From the NCBI GenBank assembly GCA_016839805.1, contig JAEOTO010000031.1:1-64000 (forward strand): a stretch of 64,000 nucleotides of DNA. Reading direction: 5' to 3'. Position numbers and translations under genes: made by a program. The notes below the pieces were generated by a model that saw nothing but the letters and a program-made list of their open reading frames with translations, was not told the origin of the DNA and made no database searches. How positions within the stretch are numbered: the stretch's first letter is position 1; every line of letters starts with the position of its first letter. Origin of the DNA: Candidatus Hermodarchaeota archaeon (GTDB lineage: Archaea; Asgardarchaeota; Hermodarchaeia; Hermodarchaeales; Hermodarchaeaceae). Below, piece after piece: positions 13,794 through 26,428 of the stretch.

Positions 13794-15557
13794 TTATCTT
13801 CTATCTTGGTTGTTTTCATAGCCGTGAAGTTCACGATGTTGTGGTTCTACATAATCAAAAGCCGTTGGAAAGTATTCTCGATGCCATTCCCATTGATTTA
13901 ATTCAATATTATATTGGCAACGTTTGAGGACAGGTGTCAACATGAAATCCTTCGAACCATTGCCATAAAATACCGCTGCGTCGAATTCGTCTTGTTCTAA
14001 GAACAGACGGTCAAGTTCTCGTCCAACCTTAAGAGCTAGACCAGTTGGGAGACCAAAAGCGACAATACAACCAGGGGTTGGATGATTGAAAACAGAGCCT
14101 CCATACATAGGAGCCTCCTGGCAACCGACAAGGAAGTTGCGGACTGTGTATCCACTACCTTCGAGGATAATGAAAATCGATTCATTGAGTCCTAGATGAT
14201 ACATACTCAGATCGGGGCGTTCGAAAACCACTCCTTGGTCGAATATTTTTTTCTGGTGACGTCGTATTACATGGACGGATACTCCTAGTAGTTGAGCAAG
14301 GCTATCAGCAGTACTATCAGGGTGCATATGAGCCAGGAGCTGATAATCAATAGATTCGAGTTCTACTGGTTCAATATTGGATTCGCTATATTGATAGATA
14401 TTAGGTTGTGTGAGAACTTCGCCATACCCTTCACGGATGAGAATGTCGCGAAGATATCGAATCCAGGCCACCCATCGGAACCTTTCAGCAATGGGAATAG
14501 CTGAATCATGGGCTAAGTAACTGCGGAGATTATAACCATTAAAGACACCACTTAGAGGGTAGAAACGATATCGAAGTAGATGACCAAGCCCCACGAGTTC
14601 TTGAAGCCATCTCTGCAATCGACTGAGTCGGAGTCGTGGAAGAATATAACTGAGGAGATAAGGCGCACCTGCACCGCCAAAGCGGTGTATTTTCCGCAGG
14701 TAAGGGCATTGCTCTAAATAGCGATTAACTCGACTGCCTGGTGCGGGATAAGCGAGAATTGCTACATGATTAAGGCGGATACGAGGAAAATCGATGCGGT
14801 AGAATCGTGAAAGAAGGAGTTTCTCACGGAAACTTGTCACGTAATTACTTAGACTACCTATGGAGAGGGAAGATTGTTCCTGTAGTTGTTTGAGGGTTGC
14901 CATGGGGTTTTCTTGGATGAGGTGGAGGACATAGAGTTCTTGTTCATTTAAAGGAGAGGTATAGTTCAGCATAAAGGTTTCAATTAATTCAACATATTCA
15001 CGAGGGGCGAGGGGGGTAATTGCAGGTTCGAGTTCGTGTAGAATGGGGAGGACTCGACGGAGGAAGCTGCCTTGCGTAACACGATTGAAGAGGGGAAAAG
15101 TCATGGGAGCATTGTATACGATGTCTCCATAATACCGACGAGGTGAGACAACTTGCCAAAGTTTTAGGAATTGTTCATGTTCGGTTAGGGGTAAATGATG
15201 AAAAGCACAAAGCAGCCCAAGATCTCTACTCTCAGAAACTTCCCGAACCACCAATGGAAGTAGAATTGAATACATCTCTCGATAGAGTACACTGTCAAGA
15301 AGAAATGGTCGATTGAAAAGTTGAGTTGCTAATCGGAACTCAGTATTTTCATAAGTACCGCAGAAGGTAGGGTCGGTAAGTGTTTCATCATCAAAGAAGT
15401 GGATACGAGTTGGTAGAGGAGGCGTGCGGTCGGTCAACTCCTTGATGTCTGCTTGAATTGATTGCAAACGTTTTTTGACCATTTGCCGTTGGTGCCGGCG
15501 TTTATTCGCACTGGGTTTTTTTGTTTTAGTTTCTTGTGTACGCGCCGTAGTCGCCAA
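13794..15557 (-). CDS. Large transcriptional regulator with two winged-HTH/Lrp-like units
   Basis: HTH1 LHLIQENPMATLKQLQEQSSLSIGSLSNYVTSF and HTH2 DYQLLAHM...TADSLAQLLGVSVHVIRRHQKKI, each followed by a ferredoxin-like (RAM-type) beta/alpha pattern. Confidence 0.7.
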   Translation of the reverse strand: MATTARTQETKTKKPSANKRRHQRQMVKKRLQSIQADIKELTDRTPPLPTRIHFFDDETLTDPTFCGTYENTEFRLATQLFNRPFLLDSVLYREMYSILLPLVVREVSESRDLGLLCAFHHLPLTEHEQFLKLWQVVSPRRYYGDIVYNAPMTFPLFNRVTQGSFLRRVLPILHELEPAITPLAPREYVELIETFMLNYTSPLNEQELYVLHLIQENPMATLKQLQEQSSLSIGSLSNYVTSFREKLLLSRFYRIDFPRIRLNHVAILAYPAPGSRVNRYLEQCPYLRKIHRFGGAGAPYLLSYILPRLRLSRLQRWLQELVGLGHLLRYRFYPLSGVFNGYNLRSYLAHDSAIPIAERFRWVAWIRYLRDILIREGYGEVLTQPNIYQYSESNIEPVELESIDYQLLAHMHPDSTADSLAQLLGVSVHVIRRHQKKIFDQGVVFERPDLSMYHLGLNESIFIILEGSGYTVRNFLVGCQEAPMYGGSVFNHPTPGCIVAFGLPTGLALKVGRELDRLFLEQDEFDAAVFYGNGSKDFMLTPVLKRCQYNIELNQWEWHREYFPTAFDYVEPQHRELHGYENNQDRR

Positions 15558-15874
15558 GCCTAGATTCGCCCCCTACTCGGCGGTTGCCATTGAAAAACTT
15601 CAAGAGCCGTTGATGCGTATTTAAAGCCCACGATAGATATAGAAAAAACAGCTTCTTAACGCTAGAATAGTAAAAAAACACCGAATATTACTTTAAAACA
15701 GATTTAAACATATTATAGCTCTACAGACAGAAAACTAAGCCAAATAAATCGTTAAAAATTGATTTGATGATACTTATTTCAACCGTACTGTGATAATAAT
15801 TTCAGTCACTTAATAATTCTGAAAAATAATTTTGTCATTTCTAGTCAGACCCGGATTGAGGTCAAAGAGGTTGC

Positions 15875-16810
15875 TCATTGTATTCGTCGGGTTAGTGGGT
15901 GCACCTCGCATGTTCGGTTCTTACAGGCTGTACATTCTGAACTTTGATGGACCCAATAGCGATCGAAGCGATCGACGAATTGAGATACAAAATCAGGATT
16001 ATTTGTTGCAGTGGCTTGTTCGCCGATACCTGACAGCCCCTTTGCGGTGAAGTTCGCGCTGCCTTCGAGGACTTCTGTTTCGTCGATGATTAGAGCTTTG
16101 ATATGCATCTGAGCACAAACCAGAATTTCAATCGTGGATGAGTCCTGAAGTAGTTTCTCGACAGCTTCTTGGAAGTGCTTTGAGGTTGCACCAAAGGCTT
16201 CAGGTTCTCGGATGATGATTCTGACCGTTACCCCTTCTTTCGATTTAGCTACGAGACGGTCGATAAGATTTACTTCACAACTTTCGGTACCAACGGTGAT
16301 AGTTTTGACATCTGTTAGATTCTGCACCATGATACGGATGCTTTGACTTGTACACTCTAACATTTCGACCATCTTACACGCGATAGCAATGCCATTGAGT
16401 AACTGATGTTGAGTGGGTTCTACATCTCCCTCTTCTTGCACTACTTCGTTGTCAGCATTAGAGACCAGTGATTCAGGGGATGCTTCTTCACTGGCGGGGG
16501 CATGTAGCGGTTCGTCGCTTTCTAGAGTTGGGGGTTGTGAAGATGTGGGATAGAAACTGTCTAACGCCTCTACTAGATCAATTGGTAAACTTTCACCACG
16601 ACGGAGCACCTTAGTAATTTCCACAAGAATTCTTGCACGTTTGTATGCGATTTTATGGGCGGAGCCTGTAGAGTGTTTCGCAATTTCCTTGAAGGCTTCG
16701 GCGGCTTTGAGGGCAGCTTCGGAGGCGTTGTAAAAGTCGCCTTGACCCATGAATTTGCGAATCAAGAGTAAAGCTTCTCGTGCTACTCGACCGAGTCGCG
16801 TTGTATTCAC
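15875..16810 (-). CDS. Single-HKD phospholipase D/Nuc-family protein with N-terminal MIT-like domain and C-terminal Cys/His motif
   Basis: HIKALIID (HxKxxxxD) and GSANFT; three-helix N-terminus; acidic linker; CTACKNRTCEVH tail. Confidence 0.8.
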   Translation of the reverse strand: MNTTRLGRVAREALLLIRKFMGQGDFYNASEAALKAAEAFKEIAKHSTGSAHKIAYKRARILVEITKVLRRGESLPIDLVEALDSFYPTSSQPPTLESDEPLHAPASEEASPESLVSNADNEVVQEEGDVEPTQHQLLNGIAIACKMVEMLECTSQSIRIMVQNLTDVKTITVGTESCEVNLIDRLVAKSKEGVTVRIIIREPEAFGATSKHFQEAVEKLLQDSSTIEILVCAQMHIKALIIDETEVLEGSANFTAKGLSGIGEQATATNNPDFVSQFVDRFDRYWVHQSSECTACKNRTCEVHPLTRRIQ

Positions 16811-16890
16811 AAGTAACCCTCACAGGAACCTTCTAACTAGCCTGTTCAACATTGGTATTAGAAGTTATGGACTCAAGAGTCCAGGCAGAT

Positions 16891-18483
16891 TCAAGGTTGG
16901 GGAGAATTGGTTGGACTTGATATTGTGAAATATTGTGCGTATTCAGCAAGTGCGGACTCCCCCTTTGGAGTAATGGTAAATACTGTGCGCCGATAGGGGC
17001 GCTTTCCCATTTCATGAGATTGGATATATCGGTGTGAGATGAGGGTTTCTAGGAGGTAGACAACTAAATCATCAGCATATCCGCTAGTTTGCGAAAGAGC
17101 AGTAGGAGTTAGTTGGTATTCACGTAAGAGCCCAAGAATGCGAACGGCTTCTTCTAAATAGTTCGTGAAATCTTTGTGGAGCATTGTGGGAGAAGGCAGA
17201 ATTTCAGGAGGTTGACTTGGGAGCTGAACCGTGAATGGATCGTAGTCAATTCCAAGGGGCCGGGGGGGCAGAGCAGTGATGCGAACAGGAATTGCCGTTT
17301 GTAGATCGGGACGTGTCATTAGAGCTGTTCCGGGTTCTAAGGTACGTAGCAATTCTCGTTGATGATGACTTTCACGTTTTGTTGAGTAAGGACTGGTGCG
17401 AATTCCAGAAAGTTTGAGTGGAACCTGGATGGCATCGATATCTCGTTTGAGTTTCAGTTGATGGACGATGAGGGTGCCAAATAGTCCCAGGGTTTCAGGG
17501 TAAAGCTGAGCTGGATGGTTTCCACTGAGATGAAGTGCGATATCGGATTGGGATAAGCGGTGTTGCCAATGACGAATATCTTTGATGCCTTCTATTTCTT
17601 TTTGGTATGTGCCTGAGGAATTGAATAGATACAAGTCGGCGTCATCGATGAGAAGGATAAGGGGGGGAATAAGGGTGCTTGGTTTGTGTTCTAGCCGCAA
17701 GGCACAAGCTTTTGCCAGAATTAAGTTAATCAGGAAGGTGTGGATTTGTCGATTTGATATAGGGCATTCGATAACTGTGATGCCACTGGAGATGAGCTGG
17801 GCAAATTGTGGGTGTGAATTCCCAGTAAAACAGGCCCCAGCAAGACCAGAAGTTAATGAGGAAAACAGCCGTTCAAGAAATTGAGCGTCGCGGCGTTCAC
17901 TAAAGTCAGAAAATTCACCTCGAGCTTGATAGGCACGAATTTCGTCAAGCAGATCTAACAATGTGGGTGGGGAATGAATTGAATAGATGTTTGCAAGTAA
18001 TCTTTGGAGAAGTAACCACTGTTTATCAGATAAAGCAAAAGGGTGTAAGGCGGCAATCAGCAGATCCGTATAAGAATTAATTTCATCAAGGTTTTCAGTA
18101 TCTAAGGGATTGATGCGAAGATTATGACCTAGTTTGTAGATTCGACATTCGGGTGTATATTGTACCAGGTTCCGATAGGTAGATCTTGTGGTAATAATAA
18201 TGTAAGCAAAAGCCCGACGTGATGCTTCGAGGGCTATACGTTGATTAGTTTGGATTCGAGATTTGGTCTGACCGAGAGTAAGAAGACCAGCAGAAAGGTC
18301 GTCGAAGCGGAGACCAACCCGAGTTTCTGATTGCATGGTTTCTGTTTCATAAGTATACCCAAGGAAGAGATCCGATTCTAAGTTTTCAGGAACTATGAAT
18401 TCAGCAGGGATTGAACTGCCCAGACCCTTAGCAAGTAATGGCGGAATCCGCAGGAAGAGGCGAACAGATTCCGCCCCGGTCAG
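16891..18483 (-). CDS. VirB4/HerA (DUF87)-like P-loop domain plus C-terminal winged helix; probable -1 frame part of a frameshifted gene (first ATG 18336)
   Basis: LRINPLD, Walker-B-like LLIDDAD, PAQL...LIVHQL, LEPGTALM; wHTH ending FTITPKG. The frame is open for 49 codons upstream of ATG 18336, back to the slippery site. Confidence 0.75.
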   Translation of the reverse strand: MTGAESVRLFLRIPPLLAKGLGSSIPAEFIVPENLESDLFLGYTYETETMQSETRVGLRFDDLSAGLLTLGQTKSRIQTNQRIALEASRRAFAYIIITTRSTYRNLVQYTPECRIYKLGHNLRINPLDTENLDEINSYTDLLIAALHPFALSDKQWLLLQRLLANIYSIHSPPTLLDLLDEIRAYQARGEFSDFSERRDAQFLERLFSSLTSGLAGACFTGNSHPQFAQLISSGITVIECPISNRQIHTFLINLILAKACALRLEHKPSTLIPPLILLIDDADLYLFNSSGTYQKEIEGIKDIRHWQHRLSQSDIALHLSGNHPAQLYPETLGLFGTLIVHQLKLKRDIDAIQVPLKLSGIRTSPYSTKRESHHQRELLRTLEPGTALMTRPDLQTAIPVRITALPPRPLGIDYDPFTVQLPSQPPEILPSPTMLHKDFTNYLEEAVRILGLLREYQLTPTALSQTSGYADDLVVYLLETLISHRYIQSHEMGKRPYRRTVFTITPKGESALAEYAQYFTISSPTNSPQP

Positions 18484-18489
18484 AAAAAA
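18440..18489 (-). other. Putative programmed -1 ribosomal frameshift signal
   Basis: In-frame T TTT TTC heptamer (18489-18483) directly before TGA, 7-nt spacer, then an 11-bp stem GGCGGAATCTG/CGGATTCCGCC (18475-18465 with 18450-18440). Confidence 0.8.
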
Positions 18490-19397
18490 TTGGGTGGTTT
18501 CCCTTGAAGGAGAAGTGATCGAATCCCATCTTCGAGTTCGGATCCGGTAAGGCGTCGGAGACGGATATGAGGGTAGGCTGTTCGGAAGGCAATTTGCAGG
18601 GTTTGGAGGTCATGTTGAGTCTGATTTTCAAGAACTTCTTCGGATACACTATCATTGCTGATTGAGCTATCTCGGCGTGTTCCTAAGAGTAACCGGGTTT
18701 TCCACATTCCACCCCATCGCCATGTAAATGCGGCTTGCTGGGTATTATCGAGATTACTCAAAGTATTTTGTGCCTCATTGGAGAGAGCAGCATGACTTGG
18801 CAGGGATTGGCTGGGAACTGGTGCATGTAATAGAGCGTAGAAGAGGGGGACGCCAGCACTGTATATGGCTCGGATAAAGGCGGACATATTTCCGCGTATA
18901 CCGACTGGAACTTTATCGATGACTAAGAGTGCTGTGGCAGAGATTCCTCCTTTGTGCGACATTAGTAGCACATCCTGATTAGGTGTAAGAAAAAATTCTA
19001 CATCAGCGAGTGGATAGATTTGGTGATTTTCAGTTGTGCTGAGATGTTTCTTGCTTTTGAAGACATTTCGCAGAATCTGTCGAGTACGTGGAAAGAAGAT
19101 GATGGTACTTATACTTTGTAATAGGAGAAAGAGTCCGATTGCTGTTGGTGTCGTGATAAGTGGAATGAGTATCATGCACAGTGCGGTATTAATGATGAGG
19201 GTTAGAAACCAGGATCTGCAAGAGCGTGTCTGTTGTTGATCTTCTGTGCTTCGCCAGAACCACCCGGTAAAACGCATTTCATCTTGGATGGAGACGGTTG
19301 GTCGTTGGCGTGAGGACGATGGGGTACCGGCTTGGGCCGCCAGAACACGTGTTTGTGTAGAAGTAGTTTCAAACCAAGATTCTTTTTTTGCACACAT
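18480..19397 (-). CDS. Two-TM membrane protein; zero-frame N-terminal part of the frameshifted VirB4/HerA-like gene (probable start ATG 19397)
   Basis: AGGTGA RBS before MCAKKESW; two TM helices then a soluble domain; ends PPNFF* on the slippery site. Confidence 0.75.
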   Translation of the reverse strand: MCAKKESWFETTSTQTRVLAAQAGTPSSSRQRPTVSIQDEMRFTGWFWRSTEDQQQTRSCRSWFLTLIINTALCMILIPLITTPTAIGLFLLLQSISTIIFFPRTRQILRNVFKSKKHLSTTENHQIYPLADVEFFLTPNQDVLLMSHKGGISATALLVIDKVPVGIRGNMSAFIRAIYSAGVPLFYALLHAPVPSQSLPSHAALSNEAQNTLSNLDNTQQAAFTWRWGGMWKTRLLLGTRRDSSISNDSVSEEVLENQTQHDLQTLQIAFRTAYPHIRLRRLTGSELEDGIRSLLLQGKPPNFF

Positions 19398-19411
19398 TTT
19401 TTGGTTCACCT

Positions 19412-19936
19412 TTAAAGGATGAGTAAGAGGAAGAGACCGAAGCCAAGACCGCTGAGGAAGAGGCTGAAGGTTGAATAGGTCTTGAGCTCGAGTATGTATG
19501 GAACTGTTAGGAAGGGTAGGGGAACAAGAAGGGGAAGAAAGATTAGGACCCATTGGAAGGTGTAGGGTCTATTCAGATAGTTTACAACAAGGAACGTGAT
19601 AGTAAAAATACTGGATACACAGGCGTAGAGGGCAAATTGTGACCATGAGTGCTTATATGGAGATTGGTTAGCTGAGGGTAGGATTATTTCTTGAATGTGG
19701 GGTTGTAGATTCGTATCTAACTTGTTATTATTTGTGGAGTGAAGGGGCTGTCCTTGATTTTGATTAGGTTGTGTGAAAACAAGTAAGAGATGTTGTTTTG
19801 CAAAGTCATTGGATTGTTTGCCTTGTCGGGTTTTTCGATAGATTTGCCATGCAATTAGAATCTCAATGAAAAATCCGATGATGATAATGATTGTGAGAGA
19901 ATTAAACCAGTTAGCCATGTGGGGACTCACCTTCAT
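19412..19936 (-). CDS. Hypothetical 4-TM membrane protein
   Basis: One N-terminal and three C-terminal hydrophobic helices; closely spaced or overlapping with its neighbours. Confidence 0.7.
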   Translation of the reverse strand: MKVSPHMANWFNSLTIIIIIGFFIEILIAWQIYRKTRQGKQSNDFAKQHLLLVFTQPNQNQGQPLHSTNNNKLDTNLQPHIQEIILPSANQSPYKHSWSQFALYACVSSIFTITFLVVNYLNRPYTFQWVLIFLPLLVPLPFLTVPYILELKTYSTFSLFLSGLGFGLFLLLIL

Positions 19937-22900
19937 TTGTTTTGGAGTTCATCTCCTTTGAGAAAAAGTGAAAGAGCCGGTTTACCAGTTCAGGATTTTC
20001 CCCTTTCACTTTTATGTGGAGTTCATTGCCGTTTTTCTCCCAGGTCAATACCACCCGATTTTTTGTACGGTCCTTTGTCTCAGCCTTGTTTAATCCAAAC
20101 TCTTTCATTGCTTGGGTGATTTGTCGGTGGACTTCAGGGGGAAGGATATTGAGCTGATGCTCTGTGGCATCTGTTGAGGACCCCCATTTCATCTCTCGAG
20201 AATTTGTGCCAGGAGGAATGAGGAGAGATGATGGCGTGGATTGAGTAGGAGGGTTGCGCTGGGCGCGTTTGCCGTTACGCATCCATATTATTCCGATAAC
20301 GCAGAGGCTGATAAGGAAGATTGGTGGGATTAATGTGATGATGAGATTTATTGTGGAGTGAGCAATGAAAATTTGATTTTCGACTGACATGATTCGGTAG
20401 GTTTCAAGATAGAGTGCGATGGAAACATAACGAATGCCGGTATCCATAATGGTTTGCGGGATGTACTGAACTGTTAATGAAATTGTTCGGATTTCATTGG
20501 GCTGGAGGATGGTTTGTGTAGAGCCGTAAAAATTCGCTTCGCCAACAATTTCAAAAGCGCGAGTTTGGGATCCAAGATTGGTTATATTTACTGTTACTTG
20601 GAAAGGTGTGTTTTGGATAACATCTTGGGGCATCTCAATGAGTGTTAACATGAAGGCAACCTGTACATTTAGAGGAACATGTTCACAATGTAGAATTAGG
20701 TCGGGTGTTGAAATCAGAAGAGTAAGGTTATGGAGTTGTGATGGACAATTGGGGAGAATTTGAACGTGTAGATGGTAGAGATTTTCACCTGGGGTGAGTA
20801 GGAGATTGGTTTTATTGATGTATCCAACTAGGGTTGCTGAGAGGCTTAGGTTGATGTTTGTTGGAGCATCCAAGCTTGAATTAATGAAACAGAATACTGA
20901 GAGCCGTTCACCTTGTTGAACGGATGACTCGTATTGTAAATAAGTTGAACATAGTGACAGTGGCGTTAAAATAAAGAGGGATTCAAGGTCAGGCTCAATG
21001 CAGGCATGGATGTAATGTGAGGCTGGGTTAGTGAGGAAGAGTGGAGTAGTGGTAATCCCTGATTCATTAGTGACTAGATGAGTGAGTTGTGGTTTGGGGA
21101 AATATTTGCAAGTGATGTTTACCTGGACTGGCTGATTAGAGTATCCTGTCCAATTGATGAAATTATAGACAAGAACATAAAGGATAGGAGTAGTTCCAAC
21201 GCGTGGATTTTTTTGGTCGATTCCTTGGCAAATCCCAAACGTAGTTTGATCGAGGAGCCATGAAAGACTGTTAGTAGCAATATGACCGCTATTGGAAGGT
21301 TGAGGTGTATTGAGTCCTAAGAAAACAATCGGAATTTGTGTTGATGTGGGTGGGAAATAGGCGAGGCTGCACCAGGAGGCATTTCCTACTAGGATGAGAG
21401 TGGGTGTTAATGGAGCAACCGCATAAACGAGGGGGCTATTTCTAAAGAGTTGTGCATCCTCTCCCATTAGTAAATGGGGACTTTGAATAATTGGATGAAA
21501 TGCCTTGAATCCCTCTACTCCGAGTGATTGGGTACCCCTTGAAGTTGTGGAGGTCATGGTTAATTCATGGAGTAACTGACAGCCAGCTTTTCCGAGAGCT
21601 AGAATAGGAATTGAGAGGTTAACTAATCGGAGTGCATTGATAGGTATGATGGTGAAACCTGGATCAAGGACCAGAGTCTGATATTGGTGGAGAGATGGAT
21701 CCAGGTAATCAGTGAGGGTGATATTGTTACTAGGGGATAATGTGGGATACCATTGAGCAAGGTAGTTGGGTGGTGTTGGGGGAAGATGGTAGGTTAGGGC
21801 AAGAATCGTTGCGATGATTAAACGAGTGATGTTTAATAGATTAATAGTACTGCATTGGATTTCTGTATCATGGAATGTGTGTTTGTACGGGTCAGGGTAT
21901 TGATCTGTTGAGAGAGTGAGTGAAGGGATAGAATTAGTATGAAACATCCACTCTGAAATACTCCATGCTTGAGACTTTTGAACTTCTTCCAACGTATTTG
22001 CGCGAGGTTTTTCAGTATCTAAGAGTGAGAATCCTAGATTAGTACTTGCAGCGGTTAAATTTGAAAGAAGGGGTTGGACGCCTTCATTGGGGTACCGATA
22101 GATTGCCAGGTTAGTGGGGAGGAACATACCCTTGTAGGCAATCTCATCGAGATTTAGAGCTATAGAGGTGGATTTGTTGATTCCTAATGTAGGTAGTCCG
22201 TGTTCTAGGAGTTGTAGTGATCCCCAAAGGGATAGGGAGCCATTGCCTTCTTCCCCACTGAGGAATGCGAATAGTACATTCCAATTCTGGTAAATTCCTG
22301 AGTGTTGCGTTAATACACAGATTGTTTCAAGGAGTGTTACGACACCGGAGGCATCGTCATTCGCACCTGGAGCGTTTGAGGATGCTAGACCTAATAGCGT
22401 GAAACGTGCTGAGTCAACGTGGCATGTGATGAGTAAGGTGGGAGCAGCCGGATTAACATCCCAGGGTGTCACGTATAGATTTCGAGTCCAGTATGTCTGA
22501 TAGACGTAGTCGATTCCATTCCAGACTCTTTTGGGTATGATGAACCAGTCTTCTGTATACGAAACGCCTATTTGGGTTAGGGAAGAGGTCACCCAGTCTA
22601 GTGAGGCATTTCCGTCGATATTGAAGGGATGACGACTGTCAAACCCTGTTAGGATGTGGAGAAGACCCAATAGACGCGTCACATTTACACGTGTTGCTAA
22701 TTCTCGCTGCCAGTGGGCTAGGCTTGATATATTTGCCACATATGCAACGGAAGGAGGGGACGATTCGGGTGGAGAAACATAGCAAGAATGTTGGAGGGGA
22801 AAAGCTGCTGTACGTGGCGGGGAACCGAGGGGAAAATGAGACGCAGATCTTGGCACTTCAGATACAGGTTGAGCTGAAGCTATGGCACCTAGCAGCAAGC

Positions 22901-22961
22901 TAGAAACAAATAGCGTATAGAGTGTGACGCGTCTCATGGGTTCTTCGATGAGTTGCGCCAA
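19911..22961 (-). CDS. Secreted, membrane-anchored M28-family metallopeptidase with Ig-like domains and cytoplasmic tail
   Basis: CHVDS, PGANDDASG, GEEG, LNLDEI, YKHTFHDT; signal peptide; TM near residue 880. Confidence 0.85.
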   Translation of the reverse strand: MAQLIEEPMRRVTLYTLFVSSLLLGAIASAQPVSEVPRSASHFPLGSPPRTAAFPLQHSCYVSPPESSPPSVAYVANISSLAHWQRELATRVNVTRLLGLLHILTGFDSRHPFNIDGNASLDWVTSSLTQIGVSYTEDWFIIPKRVWNGIDYVYQTYWTRNLYVTPWDVNPAAPTLLITCHVDSARFTLLGLASSNAPGANDDASGVVTLLETICVLTQHSGIYQNWNVLFAFLSGEEGNGSLSLWGSLQLLEHGLPTLGINKSTSIALNLDEIAYKGMFLPTNLAIYRYPNEGVQPLLSNLTAASTNLGFSLLDTEKPRANTLEEVQKSQAWSISEWMFHTNSIPSLTLSTDQYPDPYKHTFHDTEIQCSTINLLNITRLIIATILALTYHLPPTPPNYLAQWYPTLSPSNNITLTDYLDPSLHQYQTLVLDPGFTIIPINALRLVNLSIPILALGKAGCQLLHELTMTSTTSRGTQSLGVEGFKAFHPIIQSPHLLMGEDAQLFRNSPLVYAVAPLTPTLILVGNASWCSLAYFPPTSTQIPIVFLGLNTPQPSNSGHIATNSLSWLLDQTTFGICQGIDQKNPRVGTTPILYVLVYNFINWTGYSNQPVQVNITCKYFPKPQLTHLVTNESGITTTPLFLTNPASHYIHACIEPDLESLFILTPLSLCSTYLQYESSVQQGERLSVFCFINSSLDAPTNINLSLSATLVGYINKTNLLLTPGENLYHLHVQILPNCPSQLHNLTLLISTPDLILHCEHVPLNVQVAFMLTLIEMPQDVIQNTPFQVTVNITNLGSQTRAFEIVGEANFYGSTQTILQPNEIRTISLTVQYIPQTIMDTGIRYVSIALYLETYRIMSVENQIFIAHSTINLIITLIPPIFLISLCVIGIIWMRNGKRAQRNPPTQSTPSSLLIPPGTNSREMKWGSSTDATEHQLNILPPEVHRQITQAMKEFGLNKAETKDRTKNRVVLTWEKNGNELHIKVKGENPELVNRLFHFFSKEMNSKTNEGESPHG

Positions 22962-22988
22962 TTTGAATTGTTTATATGCGTTATGGTC

Positions 22989-23004
22989 TTGATTTTTAAA
23001 TCAA
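22989..23004. promoter_or_regulatory. Palindrome overlapping the TATA box of the M28 operon
   Basis: TTGATTT-TT-AAATCAA, about 30-40 nt upstream of the 22961 start. Confidence 0.4.
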
Positions 23005-23107
23005 TGATGATTAATACTTCCCAAGCAGAACTTTTTAGGAGGTTTTTTGATAGGAAAAAACAATTCTTTAAATATCACAGAGAGACGCTATTTTTACTAA
23101 CTGGGTA

Positions 23108-23374
23108 ATGGGAGAAAATAAAATGTCGAAAGTTCCAGATACCCCTGAAAATTTAGAAATCTGTAAACGATTTTGTGGACCCTGCCCTACCTTCAAACCC
23201 AACGAACTGAATAAGATTCCCCCGAATGCACTATTCTGTGCACGTGGCGCTTCCGAAAAACCCGCTGAAGAGATTGAAGATAAAGGTTGCAGTTGCTTCG
23301 GTTGTGAGGTCTTTCAGAAATACAAAATTAGTGGCGGGTGGTTCTGCATGCACGGTGTCGAGGGGCGCAAGTAG
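23108..23374 (+). CDS. Cys-rich DUF2769-family protein
   Basis: CGPCPTF...LFCARG...CSCFGCEV.....GWFC. Confidence 0.85.
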   Translation: MGENKMSKVPDTPENLEICKRFCGPCPTFKPNELNKIPPNALFCARGASEKPAEEIEDKGCSCFGCEVFQKYKISGGWFCMHGVEGRK

Positions 23375-23425
23375 CCCCTACCATTCTTTCTTTTTTCTTT
23401 CTCTCTTCGAATTATGATAATTACA

Positions 23426-24157
23426 CTTCTATAGAAAACCAAGAAAAATCTGAATAATGCTAAATTAAAATCAGTCTTATTTGCAGGTATTATATAAGAT
23501 GTACAAGGAGCGCTTGGGCGTAAACTTTTATTATGACAGCTCGTTGTATTAGAGATTGGATGGGAATACCAGTGCTCACCCAATAGAGGGAGGCACGTAG
23601 ATGCTTATCACACTCACGATTTGTTTGTTGATCTGGCTGATACTTCGATCCAAGAAATCACTCGTCCGATTTACAGTGTTTCTCCTGGCCTTGGGCATAG
23701 CCGCAGTTACCGCATATTTCAGCGCATTTTGGTTGATAGACCAGATTCAATTGGGACCTTACACCTACACCTTTTGGGCTCAGACAAGTTTTCCTCTATC
23801 CATTGTCGGGGTTCACGATGAAACCAATAACATCTACGAATACGCAGTCATGTTAGGTGGACCCGGTGGTTTAGGGGTGTTCAAATCGACGCTCTATTAT
23901 CCCACTGATGTATCAGCCCAGTTAGCCCAGTTACGGCTTGAAATGGGTATCATTATCTGGGTTCTAACAAGTGTCGTAACCACACTCGTTCTTCTGATAG
24001 CTGAAGCAATTCGAAAGACATCGCAGCGTGAACCGTCTTCCCAGTGAATGGGTATTAGAATTCTGTGGTGCGGAGAAGAACAAGATATGTGGCTTACTTC
24101 GGTCAGGGTTTCAAACTAAGAAATGATTCAGAATAATTTTCATCTTCTATAGAAAAC
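23426..24157 (+). repeat. Direct repeat CTTCTATAGAAAAC (23426-23439 and 24144-24157) flanking the 148-aa gene
   Basis: 14-bp identity, extending as ATAATT...CTTCTATAGAAAAC-N4-AAAAATC; the core TTCTATAGAA is palindromic. Confidence 0.7.
23601..24047 (+). CDS. Hypothetical membrane protein
   Basis: GGAGG RBS; three hydrophobic segments. Confidence 0.7.
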   Translation: MLITLTICLLIWLILRSKKSLVRFTVFLLALGIAAVTAYFSAFWLIDQIQLGPYTYTFWAQTSFPLSIVGVHDETNNIYEYAVMLGGPGGLGVFKSTLYYPTDVSAQLAQLRLEMGIIIWVLTSVVTTLVLLIAEAIRKTSQREPSSQ

Positions 24158-24223
24158 ATATAAAAATCAACTTAATTCCGCCGCAATCTGAAACACTACA
24201 GTGTTTGATTCGAGGCGTATTAT

Positions 24224-26428
24224 GTGAAACCAGAGCACAGAAGGACTCCTAATACAGTGCCAGTTGGTGATCGTTTCTCAGACTCTGAGTGGGGGATTCA
24301 TCCGGCTATTGCAGATATCTTGATTGATGAAGGGATTCGACAACTTCACACTATTCAATATCAGGCTTTGAAGCAAGGTGCGCTTCAAGGAGAAAATCTG
24401 CTCGTGTGCTCACCGAGTGGATCAGGAAAGACCCTGATTGGCGAATTGGTGTGTGTTCACAAGGGGATGGATGGGCAGAAATCCTTCTTTCTCGTTCCAT
24501 TGCGTGCCTTGGCTAGTGAAAAATTTCTACGATTTCAACGTCGGTATCACAAATTGGGTTTACGAATCGGTATTTCCACAGGAGATTATATAACGGAGCC
24601 TAGTGAACTCGAGAAAATCGACATAGCTATTCTCACCTATGAACGCTTTGACTGGTTAATTCGAATGGAGCCAGATTGGTTAGATCAATTAGGAGCAGTC
24701 GTGATTGATGAAATTCATAACATCGACACCCAAATCCGCGGTCCCCGCTTAGAATGTTCTATTACCCGATTACGTCAAGCTTATCCAAAGATTCAAATTA
24801 TTGGACTAAGTGCTACTGTCGCGAATCCTCAGGAACTAGGGGAATGGATGGGATGTAAATTAATTTATTCTGAGGACAGACCGGTGGCCCTATTGCATCG
24901 AGTAATCATTGCCCCCAAACCCCTGCAAACACTTGCTAGATTAGTTCGAGCCACAGTTCGGAAAGGAGGACAAGTACTCATTTTTACTCCTTCAAGACGT
25001 GAAGCGGAGCGAGTCAGTCTTACTCTCGTAAATGTCATTCGTCCACTTCTTGAATCGACTGACAAGAAGGCCCTCGAAGAATTCCATAGTCTTATCAATT
25101 TTTCTGAGGAAACTCCATTTGTACATGAGAGACTCGCAAAACGCTTACAGTTCGGAGTTGCGTTTCACCACGCAGGTCTTGATACCACGTCACGCCGAAT
25201 TATCGAAGCCCTGTACCAGAACCAGCTATTGAAAGTAATATGTTGCACAACCACGCTTGGATCTGGCATTAACACTCCTGCGCGTTTAGTGGTTTTGTTT
25301 CAGCCACTACTTACGCCACAAAGCCATAATGGTCAGTATACCATATCGCATCTTAAGGCCAATCGCGTACACCAGATTCTTGGTCGTGCAGGACGTCTTG
25401 GTCAGGAATCACTTGGATTTGCTATCCTTCTTGCCAACGGCCCCAAAGAAGCTGAAACTCTTCACGAATTATATTTCAATAATGAAAACGGAAACTCCGT
25501 GCCACGGTATAATCAGGTGTGTAGTCAACTGTTCTCTATTCAAAATCTCCGGGAACAAATCCTAGTCCTTGCAGCTCAATCAAATGGCACATCGCCTACA
25601 GAGATTGAACAGTTTTTCAAACGAACCTTTTGGTGGCATCAGAACCAGACAAAGAATCCACAATCCCGATTCGAACAGCTCATCCGAATTGGGAGCCTTG
25701 ATATTGAAACTTTGCTCTCAACCCAAAGTCAACTCAAATCAATCCAACGCCATAAAGAACGCGAACCGCGAGTAGAATTAACGCTTCTTGATCAAGATAG
25801 AATTGAAGGAAGGATTTTCGATGGTGGTTGGTTTACTAGCGCGTTTACCAAGTCAGGACCAGTGTGTAGCTGCTGCCAACAGCGGGAAGACTTAACCCTT
25901 TGCTCCCATCTATTAGCTTTGGCTCGATTTTCAGCAACACAATATCCTCAGTATGCACGTGAAATCGTACCAAGAAGCCTCAAAGAAGAATTTGTCCTTG
26001 ATTACCTAGAACGCCATGGATTACTTGCCCTGAGTGATAATCGATATTTAGCTACCATCTTGGGAAAAGTAGCTGTTAAGTTGTATATAAGACCAGAAAC
26101 CGCATTATGGATTCGATCTCGTCTACCTGTTATCACCTCAAGCTCTAGTTTCATCGAAGTTATAGTTCAGGGATTACGTTTTGAGTGCGACCCCCCGAAC
26201 AGTGTTGGATTATCCCGGGGTCTACTACATCTTGCAGAGAAAGCAGATTCCTCAATAGCCATTGCAGCGCAAAGAGAGAAGGTTGAGATAGGAGATTTAG
26301 AGAGCATACTCCAAACGGTTGTTTGGCTAGCAAAAGTAACGATAACAATTGCACGTTCAGTTGGTATTGATGGAGTTGCTTTGATAGGGGAACCGATTGT
26401 CCAAGCGTGGGACGGGTATCTAGGCTAG
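24224..26428 (+). CDS. Ski2-like (Hel308/Hjm-family) SF2 helicase with an inserted SWIM zinc finger
   Basis: PSGSGKT, DEIH, LSAT, FHHAGL, QILGRAGR; CSC...CSH SWIM motif. Confidence 0.9.
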   Translation: MKPEHRRTPNTVPVGDRFSDSEWGIHPAIADILIDEGIRQLHTIQYQALKQGALQGENLLVCSPSGSGKTLIGELVCVHKGMDGQKSFFLVPLRALASEKFLRFQRRYHKLGLRIGISTGDYITEPSELEKIDIAILTYERFDWLIRMEPDWLDQLGAVVIDEIHNIDTQIRGPRLECSITRLRQAYPKIQIIGLSATVANPQELGEWMGCKLIYSEDRPVALLHRVIIAPKPLQTLARLVRATVRKGGQVLIFTPSRREAERVSLTLVNVIRPLLESTDKKALEEFHSLINFSEETPFVHERLAKRLQFGVAFHHAGLDTTSRRIIEALYQNQLLKVICCTTTLGSGINTPARLVVLFQPLLTPQSHNGQYTISHLKANRVHQILGRAGRLGQESLGFAILLANGPKEAETLHELYFNNENGNSVPRYNQVCSQLFSIQNLREQILVLAAQSNGTSPTEIEQFFKRTFWWHQNQTKNPQSRFEQLIRIGSLDIETLLSTQSQLKSIQRHKEREPRVELTLLDQDRIEGRIFDGGWFTSAFTKSGPVCSCCQQREDLTLCSHLLALARFSATQYPQYAREIVPRSLKEEFVLDYLERHGLLALSDNRYLATILGKVAVKLYIRPETALWIRSRLPVITSSSSFIEVIVQGLRFECDPPNSVGLSRGLLHLAEKADSSIAIAAQREKVEIGDLESILQTVVWLAKVTITIARSVGIDGVALIGEPIVQAWDGYLG

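Follow-up and report, generated by a model that had tools for sequence, protein, structure and literature searches.

A predicted programmed -1 ribosomal frameshift joining a membrane protein to a VirB4/HerA-like protein in Hermodarchaeota and other Asgard archaea

A 64,000-nucleotide (nt) stretch of a Candidatus Hermodarchaeota archaeon genome (assembly GCA_016839805.1, contig JAEOTO010000031.1, positions 1 to 64,000; hereafter the window) carried two adjacent open reading frames (ORFs) on its minus strand that together make up a putative recoded gene at 16891..19397, in which 305 codons in frame 0 are continued by 530 in frame -1 to give a predicted product of 835 amino acids (aa). The upstream ORF (18480..19397, minus strand; 305 aa plus TGA) begins with an ATG at 19397 and ends CCC AAT TTT TTC TGA, its frame-0 codons AAU UUU UUC at 18491-18483 holding the slippery heptamer U UUU UUC (18483..18489, minus strand) in X XXY YYZ phase and the frame-0 stop TGA (18480..18482, minus strand) lying immediately 3' of it. 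From 18483 onward, the -1 frame reads LTGAESVRLFLRIPP and meets no stop for 530 codons, until the one at 16891. Its first 49 codons form a start-less extension (18337..18483, minus strand) that begins LTGAES, includes FLRIPPLLAKGLG and is translated sequence rather than spacer, and its first ATG, GTG or TTG is codon 50, the start of a 481-aa ORF as called from the ATG at 18336 (16891..18336, minus strand) and coding for a P-loop domain of the HerA/VirB4 type followed by a C-terminal winged helix. The predicted junction of the 835-aa product is GKPPNFF followed by LTGAESVR, within the predicted junction peptide PPNFFLTGAESVR. A sequence-only reading of the window had proposed that a programmed -1 frameshift joins the two ORFs, and its placement of the upstream ORF end, of the heptamer and its phase, of the adjacent stop and of the start-less 49-codon frame leading into the 481-aa ORF agreed with the sequence.

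A 7-nt spacer (TGACCGG, 18482-18476) separates the heptamer from a hairpin (18440..18475, minus strand) consisting of a 5' arm GGCGGAATCTG (18475-18465), a 14-nt loop (18464-18451) and a 3' arm CGGATTCCGCC (18450-18440), and this spacer, 11-base-pair (bp) stem and loop were likewise found where the earlier reading had put them. ViennaRNA extended the stem by one terminal U-G pair to 12 bp, which shortens the loop to 12 nt. Folded alone, the hairpin reached -20.8 kcal/mol (z = -4.8; 0 of 200 shuffles folded as well), and the whole 96-nt region gave a z of only -1.55, the significance being confined to the hairpin alone. The bare motif TTTTTTYTRA occurred once in the window against 2.56 occurrences expected; it is no commoner than chance, and the case therefore rests on placement, context and conservation instead of on the motif. 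The recoded gene was the only long ORF of the genome that ended in the motif and had a long -1 continuation. A 123-aa ORF ending T TTT TTC TGA (C19:16930-17299, minus strand) was rejected as a candidate, its -1 frame closing after 30 codons, and its motif is probably due to chance.

Comparison with other genomes identified T TTT TTY followed directly by a frame-0 stop in all 19 distinct frameshift-type loci, which came from four Asgard families and from metagenomes. The residue before Phe-Phe was N, H, S, A or R across these loci, yet its codon ended in T every time. The stop at the site was TGA or TAA throughout, including in genome G135, which has the heptamer variant UUU UUU U (codons GCT TTT TTT TGA) and where the overlapping -1 residues L-T become L-S. 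The family of the window (the close clade, f1) comprised 10 distinct loci, whose downstream ORFs had amino-acid identities of 51-92%; in these and in locus L028 (59% identity) the upstream ORF ended in [N/H/S]-F-F encoded by [AAT/CAT/AGT] TTT TTC, followed by TAA or TGA, and one hairpin was common to all of them. The upstream ORF of the window starts MCAKKE and those of its homologues MCA[KND].E. A metagenome scan added just two loci, and one locus (G378) was cut off at the contig end. A single metagenome-assembled genome (GCA_016550415.1) carries the whole cassette twice, as the paralogues L014 and L015, which share about 60% identity with that of the window and each have heptamer, stop and hairpin intact; this genome belongs to the Hermodarchaeia in Eme et al.

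Within the close clade, the position of greatest codon variability changed frame at the heptamer. Third-position variability tracked frame 0 as far as the heptamer, with 1.3-1.4 bits at the third position of that frame, and frame -1 beginning with the codon that follows, with 1.15-1.25 bits at the third position of the new frame; an identical switch was seen at the heptamer in the f22 family taken alone. Synonymous codon usage was also restricted around the site: among the 52 columns with an invariant, degenerate amino acid, the codon was invariant in five, namely CCC (two codons before Phe-Phe, with the N/H codon between), GCG, TCT and CGG in the stem arms, and TTC in the loop. Outside the stem, 46 of 48 such columns varied (Fisher p = 0.002, an indicative figure given that the sequences are related). 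The amino-acid sequence of the extension was conserved down to relatives with 22-23% identity. These comparisons established the signal and its conservation, translation of the -1 extension, the lack of an explanatory start codon and the existence of relatives made as one chain (both set out below), and at the level of sequence they make it very likely that the two adjacent ORFs are a single recoded gene whose 835-aa protein arises by -1 ribosomal slippage at U UUU UUC. The central proposal of the sequence-only reading, a -1 frameshift joining a membrane ORF to a VirB4/HerA-like ORF, was thus upheld by comparative evidence and by the predicted folds.

The best surviving alternative holds that there are two separate genes, the downstream protein being started at the codon-50 ATG or through reinitiation after termination, at a non-canonical codon that overlaps the stop, with the T run and hairpin serving another purpose such as transcription attenuation between the genes. 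This was considered improbable. The codon-50 ATG is conserved in the close clade and the first -1 codon of the window, CTG, is a near-cognate start; however, the 49 codons before the ATG evolve as frame -1 coding sequence from the first codon onward, and most homologues have CTA as their first -1 codon, which cannot act as a near-cognate start. No start codon is conserved. In all ten close-clade loci, the -1 frame held no ATG, GTG or TTG from its last stop before the heptamer up to the heptamer itself, and in three of them this stop lies only five codons upstream, which places the change of frame within about 18 nt including the heptamer. Start codons inside the extension occupied positions that were not conserved between loci, gene callers having chosen TTG at extension positions 10, 20 or 34 (products of 505-514 aa), with CTG or CTT found elsewhere. 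Varied starts were present in five public records (P0004, P0005, P0007, P0008 and P0011), which used either arbitrary TTG codons in the hairpin or extension (505-514 aa) or the codon-50 ATG (472-484 aa), and a frameshift was annotated in none of the five.

Fused and split relatives bore further on the separate-genes alternative. A profile search detected relatives in 198 of 400 genomes of the phylum, mostly as single ORFs of approximately 1260-1320 aa (family f9) or 780-830 aa. Homologues that are split and have ordinary starts do exist, in agreement with two independent genes: in G025 the gene is divided at exactly this residue by a TGATG stop/start overlap, and in G042 the downstream gene has an ATG nine codons upstream. 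Nevertheless, these forms with real start codons lack the T run, and the 49-codon extension of the window aligns to the N-terminus of the G025 protein, Met1 of which matches Leu1 of the -1 frame. In the fused protein P0015 (G026, 1294 aa; L026:6215-10099), residues 310-558 align to the upstream ORF (E 4e-8) and residues 591-982 to the downstream ORF (E 4e-17), in the same frame and about 30 residues on, and fused G138 retained a T6 run that is read straight through in frame. These natural controls indicate that loss of the frameshift was accompanied either by fusion of the halves or by gain of a genuine start codon, and that the slippery site persists in lineages that have no such codon. Among the f9 fused proteins (about 1290 aa), residues ~100-300 weakly repeat residues 310-560, seemingly as two tandem modules of transmembrane segment plus N-domain, and many have an in-frame Met exactly at the place homologous to the frameshift junction. 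Three fused f9 copies (G193:C23:230343-231986, G238:C14:47755-49389 and G188:C4:90651-92296) contained one or two internal TAA/TAG stops and may be pseudogenised paralogues.

The two-ORF frameshift form was identified in three families besides that of the window, f22 (G129-G134), f23 (G135) and f25 (G140), whose upstream and downstream proteins were only ~20-25% identical to those of the window. The f22 junction, present in six genomes of which one is a complete single contig, reads GGGVS[N/H]FF before the stop (AAT or CAT TTT TTC TAA), and its predicted junction peptide is VS[NH]FFLTGLE; the f25 junction is CGT TTT TTC TAA. A quick maximum-likelihood tree placed the frameshift lineages more than 2 substitutions per site apart and in one clade along with three fused and two split forms. 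A single origin of the frameshift form within this clade is compatible with the tree, the long branches leaving the number of origins uncertain.

Hairpins followed the slippery site in every frameshift lineage, each with its own sequence and beginning 5-8 nt after the heptamer (z -3.8 to -5.4; -11.7 to -23.1 kcal/mol). That of f22 is GGGUUGGAG-(4 nt)-CUCCAACYU (-11.7 to -15.4 kcal/mol), with one stem pair switching from U-A to C-G within the family, while f23 has a 16-bp interrupted stem (-23.1 kcal/mol) and f25 a 14-bp stem (-23.0 kcal/mol). The 56 nt after the junction were more structured in frameshift-type loci than in fused or split relatives (mean z -2.56 versus -0.79; Mann-Whitney p = 6e-5). 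In the close clade, the core 10 bp of the stem were paired in 10 of 10 homologues and all changes led to G-U pairs; the arm codons GCG, TCT and CGG were synonymously frozen and the sole variable arm codon, GAA/GAG, kept its pair (A-U or G-U). The earlier reading had looked to homologues for the split, the heptamer and a covarying stem: the first two were retained and covariation of the stem in the close clade was not seen, a test that was uninformative as the stem is nearly invariant and changes only to G-U. It had also suggested a pseudoknot between the loop bases CUCUU and AAGGG (18429-18425). AAGGG is present and the pairing found no support in homologues; as a conserved feature the pseudoknot was rejected, with no double changes in the five proposed pairs and two of the five broken in 2-3 of 10 sequences, and it is impossible in f22, f23 and f25, where the hairpin loops are only 4-5 nt. 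In the f22 loci L060-L065, Gly-Gly-Gly codons reading GGAGG(A/G)GG form, 10-20 nt before the heptamer, a Shine-Dalgarno-like purine tract that ends ~9-10 nt upstream of the slippery site and recalls the upstream stimulator of Escherichia coli dnaX and is absent from the clade of the window.

A second alternative is transcriptional slippage, in which RNA polymerase would insert one extra U into the T6 run, so that the fusion would be encoded in a single frame of a T7 mRNA. A homopolymer does lie at the junction, one extra U would restore the frame, and the run is T7 in G135, but this explanation leaves the strict X XXY YYZ phasing, the adjacent stop and the canonically spaced hairpin unaccounted for. 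Productive transcriptional slippage is generally known from runs of at least 9, which also counts against it. Transcriptional slippage was consequently judged very improbable, and the slippage is probably ribosomal. In ORFs of at least 120 aa from the genome of the window, in-frame T_TTT_TTY was depleted among Phe-Phe pairs (94 observed versus 132 expected; odds ratio 0.53, p = 1e-6), A_AAA_AAR was likewise depleted among Lys-Lys pairs (odds ratio 0.59, p = 2e-8), and control pairs with other preceding bases displayed no depletion. The depletion of homopolymer heptamers fits selection against slippage.

The T6 run, flagged in the earlier reading as a place where an assembly error might lie, was confirmed by a contig from an unrelated study that spans 18372-18650 with seven substitutions and no indels. 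The frame break was seen in every close homologue, the assemblies being independent and drawn from ENA, NCBI, JGI and Logan, and the T6/T7 run was identical in more than 15 independent homologue assemblies across four families. Assembly error is excluded by the indel-free contig together with these assemblies. More broadly, an artefact or decay (a homopolymer assembly error or a recently frameshifted pseudogene), of which a single-base frame break in a T run is the classic signature, merits practically no credence given the recurrence of the break in the four families, the indel-free contig and purifying selection on both frames.

Several points weigh against a recoded gene, beginning with the fact that the whole case is drawn from sequence comparison. 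Fully compensatory stem changes were sought in the ten close-clade sequences and none was found; the stem lies within conserved coding sequence, and part of its conservation is therefore at the protein level. Four f22 genomes had only weak hairpins (z about 0). The homologues are related and the statistical tests consequently overstate independence, and the heptamer depletion could equally reflect avoidance of oligo-T terminators, of replication slippage or of homopolymers in general. Finally, the conserved codon-50 ATG may allow an internally started, ATPase-only protein to be made as an extra product.

The upstream 305-aa ORF starts with a disordered N-terminus, has about two transmembrane helices within approximately residues 60-110 and ends in a soluble alpha/beta domain covering residues 118-305, consistent with its structural model (predicted local distance difference test, pLDDT, 73), in which two long hydrophobic helices precede an alpha/beta domain. 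The soluble domain aligned to residues 8-276 of the TrwK/VirB4 N-terminal domain (Foldseek E 1.7e-3, VIA Z 8.0-8.2), a weak match with scores in the range that unrelated models can reach, although its position is sensible for VirB4. The AlphaFold model of the downstream half, built from an 11-sequence alignment, had a pLDDT of 77 and matched HerA (4d2i, E 1e-11), the VirB4 C-terminal domain (4ag5, template modelling score 0.73), the DndH C-domain and HerA subunits of defence systems in Foldseek, and a profile derived from the alignment matched HerA/DUF87 (E 4e-8). The structural and profile matches thus bore out the VirB4/HerA-like label originally given to this ORF, whose modelled fold is the RecA-like ATPase fold of the HerA/VirB4 clade of FtsK-HerA P-loop ATPases. 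Its C-terminus had weak winged-helix matches, beyond which Pfam assigned no family to either ORF; PADLOC reported nothing for either, and the CedD (NCBIfam) hit, with 28 bits where the cutoff is 600, gave no support for membership. The Walker A motif is degenerate, with GQTKSR in the window and GESEPR, GTSIER or GTAKSR at the aligned position in homologues, where no lysine was conserved and a canonical GxxxxGK[ST] was sought and found absent. ATP hydrolysis is doubtful because the motif is degenerate and not conserved. A Walker B-like LLIDD, LLIDE or LLLDE was present in the close clade and in G025 and lost in the fused P0015 (LIIPH). The two ORFs together look like a membrane-anchored VirB4-like protein.

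In the proposed mechanism, ribosomes translating the 305-codon ORF would meet U UUU UUC with UGA directly behind it and the stable hairpin 7 nt downstream. A fraction would terminate, releasing a 305-aa protein with two transmembrane helices and a VirB4-N-terminal-like domain. Other ribosomes would slip back by 1 nt, either through tandem slippage of two tRNA-Phe or, by an alternative route, through slippage of the P-site tRNA-Phe from UUC to UUU with the stop codon in the A site, and both routes would yield the same junction NFF-LTG. The shifted ribosomes would then translate 530 more codons to give an 835-aa protein carrying the transmembrane helices, the VirB4-like N-domain, the HerA/VirB4-type P-loop domain and the winged helix. 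Slippage would be promoted by the downstream hairpin and probably also by the stop entering the A site. Both products are presumably functional. Their fixed ratio and their service in a translocation machine, as originally suggested, stay at the level of inference, the Walker A motif of the P-loop domain being degenerate.

The recoded gene lies in an apparent operon in the order M28-like gene, 174-aa hydrophobic ORF, recoded gene, PLD-family nuclease and 587-aa helix-turn-helix (HTH)-like gene. The 1016-aa M28-peptidase-like protein (19911..22961, minus strand) has a homologue in the corresponding place in G129 (27% identity, E 2e-34). The 174-aa ORF (19412..19936, minus strand) is directly upstream of the recoded gene and related loci carry a 150-189-aa ORF at the same place, with no detectable sequence similarity to the positional counterpart in G129. 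Downstream, a PLD-family (HKD) nuclease-like gene (15875..16810, minus strand; Pfam PLDc_2 E 2e-17) resembles DpdK and DrmC and is followed by the gene for a 587-aa protein with weak HTH matches (13794..15557, minus strand), kept downstream of it; both genes follow the recoded gene syntenically in the close clade. A divergent DEAD/Helicase_C helicase gene (Hel308-like; 24224..26428, plus strand) had 37% identity (E 2e-133) to a neighbour in G140, and its orthologue adjoins the frameshift gene pair, divergently encoded, in G140 and in metagenomic loci. Adjoining genes in other lineages encoded RadA (G129), a FEN1/XPG nuclease (G140), a NYN nuclease (G026) and an HhH protein. A conserved Asgard neighbourhood around the VirB4/HerA-like gene was therefore discernible at 13794-26428 of the window and in L075, L076, L026 and L027, with the type of nuclease variable. 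This context suggests a DNA repair, exchange or defence module, and the Hel308-like helicase, the PLD, FEN1 and NYN nucleases and RadA suggest a membrane-anchored DNA-handling complex. No other components of a type IV secretion system (T4SS) or of Ced were identified among the neighbours, with no dedicated search made for VirB6, VirD4 or CedA.

The only -1 frameshift reported in Archaea according to a 2021 review is that of the fucA1 alpha-L-fucosidase gene of Saccharolobus solfataricus (SSO11867/SSO3060; PMC8211752). As with the Asgard gene, it concerns an archaeal cellular gene with two ORFs joined by a -1 shift at an X XXY YYZ heptamer and a putative downstream stem-loop; in contrast, its heptamer is A AAA AAT and its ORFs overlap by 40 bases, hence no stop directly follows the site (PMC8211752). 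The review names no other archaeon or gene with a fucA1-type site (PMC8211752), whereas the Asgard site was kept across four families. The Asgard site also differs in the stop that directly follows it and in joining a membrane module to an ATPase-fold module. The fucA1 frameshift is proven experimentally and the Asgard case is known here from its sequence.

Bacterial -1 shifts such as those of the IS3-family orfA-orfB genes (e.g. IS911) and of E. coli dnaX combine a heptamer with a hairpin or pseudoknot and give two functional products per mRNA. The products of IS3 elements are an unfused upstream protein and a fusion of the upstream with the downstream part, and the same is proposed for the Asgard gene. 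These elements and dnaX differ in being bacterial and in using A AAA AAG, and dnaX has an upstream Shine-Dalgarno-like element and a shift that shortens the protein. Bacillus subtilis cdd-type sites have the frame-0 stop directly 3' of the shift site, which allows P-site slippage with the stop in the A site, but they lack a full tandem heptamer and their efficiency is tied to a Shine-Dalgarno-like element, while the Asgard gene has both a full heptamer and a hairpin. VirB3, a small membrane protein of T4SS, occurs either on its own or as a fusion with VirB4, and the split, fused and frameshift forms of the Asgard family parallel this arrangement. The likeness to VirB4 (TrwK) and HerA lies in the HerA/VirB4 fold of the Asgard C-terminal half and in the weak alignment of the upstream domain to the VirB4 N-domain; differences are the degenerate Walker A, the C-terminal winged helix and the repair-type helicase and nuclease neighbours. 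A literature search on Asgard or archaeal frameshifting and on Asgard VirB4 retrieved no Asgard case and nothing on this VirB4/HerA-like family.

The mechanism itself is canonical; among archaeal cellular genes, this one would be the first with a conserved -1 frameshift. Public annotations of the family as 472-514-aa 'hypothetical proteins' with arbitrary TTG starts are wrong. The natural fused, split and frameshift versions within the family offer a ready-made comparison for why two products are made from one gene. It is a tentative possibility that an ancient frameshift sets the stoichiometry of N-domain-only to full-length VirB4/HerA-like subunits in a membrane DNA-handling machine together with the Hel308-like helicase, nuclease and RadA, which would represent an Asgard-specific system of DNA uptake, exchange or repair regulated by recoding and the first phylogenetically conserved cellular case in Archaea. 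The preservation of a canonical cassette by selection across Asgard lineages whose proteins have diverged to ~20% identity implies that Asgard ribosomes respond to heptamer-plus-structure signals like bacterial, eukaryotic and viral systems, and the site provides a natural cassette for recoding studies on the archaeal ribosome closest to the eukaryotic one.

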